This document shows, one piece after another, positions 3 to 2,253 of a stretch of DNA of 4,710 nucleotides. The translations under genes were made by a program, and so were the position numbers. This stretch comes from a virus. Lineage: Duplodnaviria; Heunggongvirae; Uroviricota; Caudoviricetes. The stretch lies in the IMG/VR virus record IMGVR_UViG_2728369185_000005, one strand, 5' to 3'. A model generated the notes under the pieces. It was not told the DNA's origin. It saw nothing but the letters and a program-made list of their open reading frames with translations, and ran no database searches. Each line of letters starts with the position of its first letter. The first letter of the stretch is position 1.

Positions 3-740
3 AAGGCGATGTATGCAGCGACGATTGAAAGTGAACTTGATACCGAAAAGGCCTTTGAATATATCGCCGGCGCGCCACAGGAGCAGAAGGATAATCCGCT
101 TATTAATATTCTGGAGAAGTTTTCCAGCTGGTATGACACGAATAACGTGACACTGGGCGGTGTCAAAATTCCGCACCTTTTCCCTGGTGATGATCTGAAA
201 CTACAGACTGCGCAGGATTCAGACAATGGATTTTCTGCGCTTGAACAGGCGCTGCTGCGGTATATCGCCGCCGGTCTTGGCGTTTCCTACGAACAGTTGT
301 CCCGTGNNNNNNNNNNNNNNNNNNNNNNNNNNNNNNNNNNNNNNNNNNNNNNNNNNNNNNNNNNNNNNNNNNNNNNNNNNNNNNNNNNNNNNNNNNNNNN
401 NNNNNNNNNNNNNNNNNNNNNNNNNNNNNNTTTTGATTTTTATCAGGCGCGATCAGCCTGGTCACGGGCAGAGTGGATTGGTGCCGGAAGAATGGCCATT
501 GACGGGCTCAAGGAAGTCCAGGAATCAGTGATGCGCATTGAGGCCGGACTGAGCACGTATGAGAAAGAGCTGGCGCTGATGGGCGAGGATTATCAGGACA
601 TTTTCCGCCAGCAGGTCAGGGAATCTGCAGAGCGGCAAAAAGCCGGACTCTCACGTCCGGTGTGGATAGAGCAGGCGTATCAGCAGCAGATAGCGGAGAG
701 TCGTAGGCCGGAAGAGGAGACAACACCACGTGAGACGTAA
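3..740 (+). CDS. B: Portal protein, C-terminal part (5'-truncated at window edge); frame is open from position 3, first ATG at 9 is not the true start
   Basis: Long ORF open to the window start, immediately upstream of a clear lambda gpC homolog, as in lambda B-C order. C-terminal sequence (…GVSYEQLSR…WIGAGRMAIDGLKE…) resembles lambda-like portal proteins by recall. Stop TAA 738-740. Residues 307-430 are masked (N). Confidence 0.8.
   Translation, partial: KAMYAATIESELDTEKAFEYIAGAPQEQKDNPLINILEKFSSWYDTNNVTLGGVKIPHLFPGDDLKLQTAQDSDNGFSALEQALLRYIAAGLGVSYEQLSRXXXXXXXXXXXXXXXXXXXXXXXXXXXXXXXXXXXXXXXXXXFDFYQARSAWSRAEWIGAGRMAIDGLKEVQESVMRIEAGLSTYEKELALMGEDYQDIFRQQVRESAERQKAGLSRPVWIEQAYQQQIAESRRPEEETTPRET
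307..430. other. Run of 124 undetermined bases (N), masked or unresolved
   Basis: Direct observation. Reading frame of the portal ORF is preserved across the run, so the Ns appear to replace bases 1:1. Confidence 1.
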
Positions 741-2253
741 TCTTTCACACATTATTGCCGCAGCATTCAATGAACCGCTGCTTCTGGAGCCCGCCTATGC
801 GCGGGTTTTCTTTTGCGCGCTGGGGCGCGAGATGGGGGCAGCAAGTCTTTCGGTACCACAACAGCAGGTACAGTTTGATGCTCCCGGAATGCTGGCTGAA
901 ACGGACGAGTACATGGCCGGAGGTAAACGACCGGCCCGTGTTTACCGGGTGGTGAACGGTATTGCTGTACTGCCGGTGACCGGCACGCTGGTGCACCGGC
1001 TGGGTGGTATGCGGCCATTTTCCGGAATGACAGGCTATGACGGCATTGTCGCCTGTCTTCAGCAGGCAATGGCGGATAGCCAGGTGCGGGGCGTACTGCT
1101 GGACATTGACAGTCCGGGCGGGCAGGCCGCCGGCGCGTTTGACTGCGCTGACATGATTTACCGCCTCCGTCAGCAGAAGCCGGTCTGGGCACTGTGCAAT
1201 GACACGGCCTGTTCTGCAGCCATGCTGCTGGCGTCGGCCTGCTCCCGACGGCTGGTTACCCAGACATCCCGTATCGGCTCCATTGGCGTGATGATGAGCC
1301 ATGTCAGCTATGCCGGTCATCTGGCGCAGGCCGGTGTGGATATCACGCNNNNNNNNNNNNNNNNNNNNNNNNNNNNNNNNNNNNNNNNNNNNNNNNNNNN
1401 NNNNNNNNNNNNNNNNNNNNNNNNNNNNNNNNNNNNNNNNNNNNNNNNNNNNNNNNNNNNNNNNNNNNNNNNNNNNNNNNNNNNNNNNNNNNATACCGGT
1501 CTGTCTGTTGATGCCGTCACGGGAACAGAGGCTGCCGTTTTTGAAGGTCAGTCCGGCATTGAGGCCGGGCTGGCGGATGAATTAATCAATGCGTCGGATG
1601 CCATCAGTGTGATGGCCACGGCGCTGAACAGTAATGTCAGAGGAGGCACTATGCCGCAATTAACTGCAACGGAAGCCGCCGTGCAGGAGAACCAGCGAGT
1701 GATGGGGATCCTGACATGCCAGGAAGCGAAAGGACGTGAACAGCTTGCCACGATGCTGGCAGGACAACAGGGCATGAGCGTTGAACAGGCCCGGGCGATT
1801 CTGGCCGCGGCGGCACCGCAGCAGCCGGTGGCATCCACGCAGAGTGAAGCCGATCGCATTATGGTGTGTGAAGAAGCGAACGGTCGTGAACAACTGGCGG
1901 CAACGCTGGCGGCGATGCCGGAGATGACGGTGGAAAAAGCCCGCCCGATCCTGGCTGCTTCACCGCAGGCGGATGCCGGACCATCACTCCGTGATCAGAT
2001 CATGGCACTGGATGAGGCAAAAGGGGCTGAGGCGCAGGCTGAACAGCTGGCTGCCTGCCCGGGAATGACAGTGGAGAGCGCCCGGGCTGTGCTGGCTGCG
2101 GGATCAGGTAAGGCAGAACCGGTCTCTGCATCCACAACCGCCATGTTTGAACATTTCATGGCGAACCATTCACCGGCAGCGGTACAGGGTGGCGTGGCAC
2201 AGACGTCAGCAGACGGTGATGCGGACGTGAAAATGCTCATGGCCATGCCATGA
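730..2253 (+). CDS. C: Head maturation protease / minor capsid protein C (S49 SppA/ClpP-like peptidase) with C-terminal scaffold (Nu3-like) domain
   Basis: 507-aa ORF. N-terminus NLSHIIAAAFNEPLLLEPAYARVFFCAL closely matches lambda gpC NLPHIASMAFNEPLMLEPAYARVFFCAL (recall). Conserved S49 motifs: GIAVLPVTGTL, GMTGY, LDIDSPGG, GAFDCAD, KPVWAL, CSAAMLLASACSRRLVTQTSRIGSIGVMM (presumed catalytic Ser in 'CSA'). GTG start at 730 with GAGGAG (714-719) 10 nt upstream; overlaps B stop by 11 nt. Stop TGA 2251-2253. Positions 1349-1492 masked. Confidence 0.9.
   Translation: MRRNLSHIIAAAFNEPLLLEPAYARVFFCALGREMGAASLSVPQQQVQFDAPGMLAETDEYMAGGKRPARVYRVVNGIAVLPVTGTLVHRLGGMRPFSGMTGYDGIVACLQQAMADSQVRGVLLDIDSPGGQAAGAFDCADMIYRLRQQKPVWALCNDTACSAAMLLASACSRRLVTQTSRIGSIGVMMSHVSYAGHLAQAGVDITXXXXXXXXXXXXXXXXXXXXXXXXXXXXXXXXXXXXXXXXXXXXXXXXXTGLSVDAVTGTEAAVFEGQSGIEAGLADELINASDAISVMATALNSNVRGGTMPQLTATEAAVQENQRVMGILTCQEAKGREQLATMLAGQQGMSVEQARAILAAAAPQQPVASTQSEADRIMVCEEANGREQLAATLAAMPEMTVEKARPILAASPQADAGPSLRDQIMALDEAKGAEAQAEQLAACPGMTVESARAVLAAGSGKAEPVSASTTAMFEHFMANHSPAAVQGGVAQTSADGDADVKMLMAMP
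1349..1492. other. Run of 144 undetermined bases (N) inside the C protease domain
   Basis: Direct observation. Frame preserved. By analogy to lambda gpC this block likely covers the region carrying the catalytic Lys of the Ser-Lys dyad, so the active site cannot be verified from this sequence. Confidence 1.
1651..2253 (+). CDS. nu3: Capsid scaffolding protein (Nu3-like), nested in-frame in the 3' part of C via an internal start
   Basis: In-frame ATG at 1651 preceded by a strong SD AGGAGG (1641-1646). Product starts MPQLTATEAAV…ENQRVMGILTCQEAKGREQ, parallel to lambda Nu3 (MTKETQ…ENSRIMGILNCEEAHGREE, recall). Lambda nu3 is likewise nested in-frame in C. Predicted 200 aa with a triplicated repeat module. 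Confidence 0.6.
   Translation: MPQLTATEAAVQENQRVMGILTCQEAKGREQLATMLAGQQGMSVEQARAILAAAAPQQPVASTQSEADRIMVCEEANGREQLAATLAAMPEMTVEKARPILAASPQADAGPSLRDQIMALDEAKGAEAQAEQLAACPGMTVESARAVLAAGSGKAEPVSASTTAMFEHFMANHSPAAVQGGVAQTSADGDADVKMLMAMP

Follow-up and report, generated by a model that had tools for sequence, protein, structure and literature searches.

Judging by its sequence, the window analyzed here (the whole stretch of 4,710 nucleotides) is the head-gene operon of coliphage 21, or that of a nearly identical prophage. Positions 1500–2290 were found to be 99.9% identical, across all 791 nt, to GenBank M81255.1, entitled “Bacteriophage 21 head gene operon”, and to OL657228.1, the complete genome of phage 21. 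Other E. coli lambdoid phages (ev017, 4A7, D2 and the PhiR series) match the same segment at 92–99.7%. In the announcement of the phage 21 genome, M81255 is given as a previous, partial sequence of that phage (PMC9119081). The order of ORFs is lambda-like, with the end of a portal gene followed by an S49 ORF (730–2253) and then by ORFs for HDPD, Phage_cap_E, Packaging_FI and Phage_attach, the FII counterpart. The head-gene synteny portal, C/Nu3, D, E, FI, FII is therefore present, as read from Pfam matches of the downstream ORFs and from the portal gene upstream. Two overlapping genes and one translation signal are of concern here:

730..2253, plus strand: gene 5, the counterpart of lambda C, encoding a prohead protease of the S49 family with a scaffold region fused to its C-terminus; GTG start
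1641..1646, plus strand: internal Shine-Dalgarno (SD) sequence AGGAGG, which coincides with the Gly-Gly codons of a GGTM motif and is the ribosome-binding site (RBS) in both phage 21 records
1651..2253, plus strand: gene 6, the counterpart of lambda Nu3, 200 aa plus a stop codon, in frame with gene 5 and with the same C-terminus as gp5

The identity of the gene 5 product is well supported by Pfam Peptidase_S49 (PF01343; E 4.5e-18), by PHROG 53, head maturation protease (E 8.5e-195), by the SppA structures 3rst and 4kwb in the PDB (E ~4e-16), and by 58% identity to lambda gpC. A preliminary description of this DNA put the length of the protein at about 507 aa, which is too long. The gp5 of phage 21 itself, with the same GTG start, has 501 aa, and the extra length of the ORF in the window arises because one of its masked N-runs (1349–1492) exceeds the real sequence by 18 nt. 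The gene 6 product matches PHROG 8399, head scaffolding protein (E 3.5e-34), and has no family in Pfam or NCBIfam. A promoter and terminator scan of 1500–2750 found nothing inside the gene.

Gene 6, which the preliminary description had proposed as a nested Nu3-like gene, is annotated in both phage 21 records. With positions converted to M81255 by adding 3824, the gene 6 CDS of that record (5475–6077, putative RBS at 5464–5468) is exactly 1651–2253 of the window. The record also marks three repeat_regions within gene 6 (“Tri1 box”, “Tri box” and “Tri3 box”), each with the remark “function unknown; putative”. In OL657228, the nested CDS CPT_21_06, “scaffolding protein”, has its own RBS and lies within a CDS named “capsid protease/scaffolding protein”, which in M81255 is gene 5. 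The coordinates of the CDSs, RBS and repeats are the same in phage 21 and in the window, which differs from it by its N-runs and by one residue, a V/A difference in gp6 (TEAAV versus TEAAA; 99.5% aa identity). The public record thus already contains both the nested gene and its triplication, in GenBank since the early 1990s. The M81255 deposit and its Tri boxes are presumably those of Smith and Feiss 1993 (Gene 126:1). The observation is correct but not new, and its importance as a discovery is limited, since the deposit of the phage 21 head operon already contained it.

The internal start of gene 6

Direct reading of 1641–1653 gives AGGAGG-cact-ATG, with the SD sequence 4 nt upstream of the ATG at 1651. 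This pair of signals, on which the proposal of separate translation had been based, is also conserved in homologues. A strong SD-like hexamer with an in-frame ATG occurs at the equivalent place in 61 of 79 non-redundant homologous C genes, drawn from Enterobacterales, Aeromonadaceae, the Pseudomonas group (Halopseudomonas, Metapseudomonas and Ectopseudomonas) and marine gammaproteobacteria. Among the three-unit relatives discussed below, the Salmonella and Trabulsiella loci have an internal SD and ATG 15 residues before the first repeat unit, as in phage 21, and no strong SD was found in the Providencia locus.

Codon choice provides a further line of evidence. The homologous start sits at the end of the protease region, within a G-G-x-M motif, and the first Gly codon of this motif is GGA in all 99 of the non-identical genes compared, versus 18% GGA among the remaining Gly codons of these genes; many of the 99 are close relatives and so not independent events, and the set spans proteins that are only 40–50% identical. 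Such uniformity reflects selection for GGAGG at the level of nucleotides and speaks for an internal start that is functional. Translation of phage 21 gene 6 would thus probably begin at 1651, given the SD and ATG signals, the annotation and the precedent of lambda.

The arrangement in lambda C/Nu3 is the same as that of phage 21, with an S49 protease followed by a scaffold region, an internal SD and ATG, the repeat module, and a common gene order. At the equivalent place lambda reads GGAGGgcgaATG, and its Met309 is preceded by GGAGG-gcga. The RefSeq lambda nu3, in contrast, is a 201-aa protein starting at Met239, where there is no SD upstream. The lambda start homologous to 1651 is Met309, which gives a product of 131 aa, so the 200-aa scaffold of phage 21 is about 69 aa longer than that of lambda. 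The length of roughly 200 aa originally suggested for the phage 21 scaffold agrees with its ORF, and the similar length of RefSeq nu3 is a coincidence.

Gene 6 contains three further in-frame ATGs, at 1702, 1861 and 2002, which were considered as additional nested starts and rejected. Those at 1861 and 2002 have no SD at a usable distance upstream; an AGGAGA lies ~12 nt upstream of the ATG at 1702. The methionines encoded by the ATGs inside the units occupy a conserved hydrophobic position (I/L/M).

Three diverged copies of one protein module

Downstream of the internal start, the region common to gp5 and gp6 is made up of three repeat units and a tail:

1696..1815, plus strand: unit 1, gp6 residues 16–55 (“Tri1 box”, 1718–1821); profile match of 72–74 bits
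1852..1965, plus strand: unit 2, gp6 residues 68–105 (“Tri box”, 1858–1968); profile match of ~80 bits
1993..2106, plus strand: unit 3, gp6 residues 115–152 (“Tri3 box”, 1999–2112); profile match of ~72 bits
2107..2250, plus strand: C-terminal tail, in which a single helix is predicted (AMFEHFMANHSPAA)

The repeat is genuine and ancient, and it can be recognized only in the protein. Between pairs of units, BLOSUM62 local alignment scores are 87–101, compared with 25–28 ± 5 for shuffled sequences (z = 11–16), and none of 2000 shuffles reached the observed score. Each unit also aligns with lambda residues 360–399, RIMGILNCEEAHGREEQARVLAETPGMTVKTARRILAAAPQ, at z = 12–17. Unit 1 matches lambda Nu3 with a local score of 121 (z = 17) and is the orthologue of lambda's single unit; it is extended at its N-terminus by RVMG, and its leading helix is long. 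When a profile of the unit was used, there were three matches in the gp5/gp6 protein and one in lambda gpC; likewise, each of four PHROG profiles of single-unit proteins (8399, 8940, 17040 and 16406) matches the phage 21 protein in three separate stretches. The three tandem, diverged copies in phage 21 and the single copy in lambda were thus both described correctly at the outset.

The finer dimensions of the module require some revision. A repeat of 47–53 aa had been reported; the repeat stands, and its core is ~38 aa, the larger figure including the linker. Of the two periods first given, 141 nt is retained and 159 nt is replaced by an in-register value of 150 nt. Nor does each copy begin at an equivalent ATG, although all three ATGs are present. 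A 3-residue extension (RVMGIL) found only in first units holds the Met at 1702, which is therefore not homologous to those at 1861 and 2002. The tail opens like the vestigial start of a unit and aligns loosely with the lambda tail (DRLMQGAP...LLNTPV), which is shorter. A direct repeat (D4) links 1992–2006 with 2148–2162 in the tail.

At the nucleotide level, little of the repetition can be seen. Pairs of units share 53–59% of their amino acids and, over 32-codon cores, 57–66% of their nucleotides; where residues are identical between units, the codon is the same at fewer than half of them, and the longest exact word in common is 8–9 nt. Tandem Repeats Finder (TRF) reported no array, and a nucleotide repeat search returned only fragments of 12–22 nt. 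The lack of a DNA-level array excludes a recent duplication or an assembly artefact. The original view of an old duplication is borne out by the low nucleotide identity, the TRF result and the positional orthology of units described below.

On another reading, the Tri boxes would act as DNA or RNA and not as protein modules, either being bound by proteins or forming structured RNA. Besides the repeat_region labels in GenBank, two matches to a CII-consensus pattern lie nearby in OL657228. Such a role is nonetheless extremely improbable, as the copies have diverged in nucleotides, shared words and codons to the extent just given, and it is the amino-acid sequence that is conserved. The search for it also found no Rfam match in the window and no TRF array.

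Copy number and its history

Copies of the module in related loci were counted in complete ORFs; a search for homologous proteins had given mostly fragments at contig ends. A scan of viral contigs was saturated by near-identical loci of the phage 21 type, and diversity was instead obtained from genome contigs and from a search of 1.84 billion cluster representatives. One unit was found at 64 loci, including lambda and prophages of Enterobacter, Kluyvera, Klebsiella, Citrobacter, Serratia, Vibrio, Photobacterium, Pseudomonas and Marinobacter. Three units were found at 83 loci, comprising 21-type prophages of E. coli, Shigella and E. albertii, those of Trabulsiella guamensis and Providencia alcalifaciens, and IMG/VR contigs ~65% identical that are Salmonella/Gifsy-like by similarity. 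In the same set of complete ORFs, two loci had two units. The profile search found the module in 1,264 of the 1.84 billion representatives (E <= 0.001), and among the best 150 of these, the 144 that were newly returned divide into 131 proteins with one copy, 10 with two and 3 with three. Most relatives, then, carry a single unit, in keeping with the original proposal of an expansion relative to lambda. Across these ~1,260 protein clusters one copy is the norm, and three copies mark one old lineage, that of phage 21, Gifsy-1, Trabulsiella and Providencia. Since two-copy proteins are also found in distant lineages, the module must have been duplicated on more than one occasion.

The age of the triplication can be gauged by comparing units by position (U1, U2 and U3) across the E. 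coli, Salmonella, Trabulsiella and Providencia proteins. A unit most resembles its positional counterpart in the other three-unit proteins in 14 of 15 comparisons. The units of the Gifsy-1/Salmonella, Trabulsiella and Providencia prophage proteins are, accordingly, positional orthologues of U1, U2 and U3 of phage 21, and a single triplication predates the split of these phage lineages. The gpC homologue of Gifsy-1 matches gp6 from end to end at 53.5% identity; Gifsy-1-related proteins as a group are 53–71% identical to phage 21 and differ from it in their linkers and tails.

Copy number is still changing. Two-unit forms in E. coli are U1/U2 chimeras with differing crossovers, located either inside GREQLA or at ...EQAR|PIL..., and a third two-unit form in E. 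coli has kept U1 and U3 and has no U2. At the other extreme, an E. coli protein (P0026) with four units, 70–88% alike, lies within a normal C-D-E-FI-FII module. Full-length proteins always have a tail (median ~46 aa) after the last unit, and single-unit proteins have a low-complexity linker of 32–64 aa upstream of the unit. In lambda, the one module follows a Ser/Thr/Ala-rich insert of 36 aa that phage 21 lacks.

Drift of this kind raises the question of whether the additional copies matter at all. They could be mere padding, a neutral gain in length from unequal crossing-over, in which case unit 1 alone would be functional, and the chimeric two-copy and four-copy forms, together with the linker that takes the place of extra units in single-unit proteins, would be consistent with that. 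Selection speaks otherwise. Across 58 distinct alleles of the 21 type, pN/pS is 0.15, 0.22 and 0.21 for units 1–3, compared with 0.12 for the protease region, 0.23–0.66 for the linkers and the segment before the units, and 0.28 for the tail, from which it follows that all three units are maintained by purifying selection. Constraint on units 2 and 3 is as strong as on unit 1, and both have been distinct since before the phage lineages of E. coli, Salmonella and Providencia split. Padding is thus an unlikely explanation. At the same time, natural forms with one and two copies occur in similar head modules, and three copies are therefore not required to build a lambda-type head.

The predicted fold and a role in procapsid assembly

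Modeling suggests an arrangement of beads on a string. AlphaFold2, run on gp6 with 19 homologues, predicted three separate helical beads (pLDDT ~76–84) and one tail helix (residues 160–173, with low-confidence flanks), joined by linkers of low confidence (pLDDT below 50–65). Unit 1, modeled from an alignment of 27 units, reached a pLDDT of 80.9 (core ~90) and a pTM of 0.61, with helices at 6–21, 30–37 and 44–53; its invariant EAKGRE motif lies at a short turn. The helices predicted for unit 2 are at 66–71, 80–87 and 94–103, and those for unit 3 at 113–118, 127–134 and 141–151. Each unit is therefore predicted to be a small three-helix bundle.

No match with E < 3 was found when the whole gp6 model was compared with the PDB by Foldseek, and a profile search of the PDB with the module found no solved homologue by sequence. 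Matches of that profile to designed tandem-repeat proteins were rejected as homologues, since they reflect a chance “GVSLEQA..IL” helix motif. Among the predicted viral structures of BFVD, the sole confident matches (probability 1.00, TM 0.70–0.76) were to the C-terminal regions of other prohead proteases of the S49 family, among them that of a Synechococcus phage (a cyanophage). The module is, then, a conserved companion of the S49 prohead protease family whose structure is unsolved.

What is known of Nu3 gives some indication of what the module might do. Nu3 is lambda's essential scaffold; its partners are E, C, B and Nu3 itself, and its gene overlaps C (PMC3224144), an overlap for which PMC8508860 cites Shaw and Murialdo 1980. 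The interactions Nu3-E, Nu3-Nu3 and Nu3-C were found by yeast two-hybrid without mapping of domains (PMC3224144), and Nu3 has also been linked to incorporation of the portal in lambda (PMC3224144; PMC10695390). Scaffolds of other phages grip the capsid protein by means of small helical C-terminal elements (PMC11565965; PMC11922011). The coat-binding helix-turn-helix of P22 gp8, like other helical contacts between scaffold and capsid (phi29, SPP1 and 80alpha), resembles the present case in being a small helical element at the C-terminal end of a largely flexible scaffold. It differs in having no sequence similarity or significant fold similarity to the module, which is predicted to be a three-helix bundle and occurs in tandem.

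Considered together, these data make it highly probable that gene 6 of phage 21 encodes a three-module counterpart of Nu3, and the modules may bind the procapsid in a multivalent manner. Ribosomes would start at the internal SD and ATG within gene 5 to produce the 200-aa scaffold, which would consist of three small three-helix bundles on flexible linkers followed by a short tail. As the whole gp6 sequence is also the C-terminus of the protease, the common region would carry the protease into the procapsid with the scaffold. Each module would bind a partner in the procapsid, for which the major capsid protein is the likeliest candidate. In the 21/Gifsy lineage, a tandem triplication of long standing took the module from one copy to three and, in doing so, may have made both scaffold and protease multivalent. 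The function of the module is thus probably to bind the capsid protein, with copy number setting the valency.

Another possibility is that the modules are units of self-association, binding the scaffold and the identical C-terminus of the protease to one another, while the capsid is bound elsewhere, such as by the tail. The Nu3-Nu3 and Nu3-C interactions reported for lambda fit this arrangement, as does a tail that is itself conserved, has a helix and is never missing from full-length proteins. The most conserved, charged loop (EAKGRE) is nevertheless in the module and not in the tail, and pN/pS of the tail is slightly above that of the units; we would give self-association an appreciable but clearly minor chance. 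The modules might also bind the portal (gene 4, lambda B) for its recruitment, in line with the need for Nu3 in incorporating lambda B. Copies of the scaffold far outnumber the 12 portal subunits. A module that is present in every scaffold copy, at 3–4 per chain, better fits a partner that is repeated in the lattice, and binding to the portal is accordingly improbable.

It is also conceivable that copy number (1 to 4), gained and lost by recombination, serves as an evolvable “valency dial” for the grip of scaffold and protease on the capsid lattice, a proposal that is tentative and for which we would claim less than an even chance. The variation in copy number, the recombinant two-unit forms and the fold of the module had no description in the literature searched and are modest additions to what was recorded with phage 21. 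What remains of value is a natural experiment, in which homologous lambda-type heads are built with scaffolds having one, two, three or four copies of the same module. Such a natural series could be used to map the binding of lambda Nu3 and to learn whether valency affects the fidelity of assembly or the loading of the protease.

Masked runs, gene lengths and an intergenic hairpin

The following features were noted in the window:

307–430, masked run of N
1349–1492, masked run of N
2984–2993, masked run of N
2645–2666, GC-rich hairpin with a perfect 9-bp stem, TCAGGCCACCGCGGTGGCCTGA, located in the short intergenic space that separates shp/D (decoration gene) from 7/E (major capsid gene)

The run at 1349–1492 is 18 nt longer than the matching sequence of real phage 21, and ORF lengths read directly from the window are therefore inflated, with gp5, the prohead protease, appearing as 507 aa rather than 501 aa. 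The capsid gene, too, reads as 344 aa in the window, where the annotated CDS of 1029 nt gives 342 aa. The hairpin between shp/D and 7/E was marked as terminator-like by the promoter/terminator scan, but it has only a weak T-run.

Anomalous relatives in public collections

Near-identical copies of the lambda C gene (loci L094, L096–L103 and others) were found on low-coverage contigs, several of them close to 48.4 kb long, from assemblies whose organisms are unrelated, namely Neobacillus, Chromatium, Kitasatospora, Shewanella, Pseudomonas, Oceanobacillus, Leeuwenhoekiella and an Akkermansia MAG. Such a distribution looks like contamination of public assemblies with lambda control DNA. A separate oddity is P0207, a three-unit scaffold from the protein profile search. 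Throughout this protein Val, Ile/Met, Leu and Phe systematically take the places of Ala, Thr, Pro and Ser, respectively. The entry appears to be the translation of reads that underwent C-to-T conversion, either chemical or computational, and thus to be an artefact within the protein collection.

Internal start, linker and tail of the scaffold

In the RefSeq annotation of lambda (L003, NC_001416; locus 833–1438), nu3 starts at Met239 (position 5132) and encodes 201 aa; no SD is visible upstream of that codon. A GGAGG followed by an ATG at 5342 (locus position 1043) corresponds to Met309 and would give a 131-aa product, and this start is conserved and homologous to that of phage 21 gene 6.

At the other end of the scaffold, the beginning of the phage 21 tail (2148–2162) resembles a unit start (1992–2006), with EHFMA matching DQIMA at 80% nucleotide identity over 15 nt; the lambda tail opens with DRLM (DRLMQGAP). 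Two possible explanations of the tail start are a vestigial partial unit and a conserved first-helix start once used as a recombination register.

Spacing between the internal start and the unit also varies among these proteins. Single-unit scaffolds have 32–64 residues there, Ser/Thr/Ala-rich in many cases, and the lambda segment is 36 residues longer than that of phage 21. In three-unit scaffolds, the distance is 15 residues at nearly all loci with a detected start. Unit number and linker length appear to trade off in these scaffolds.
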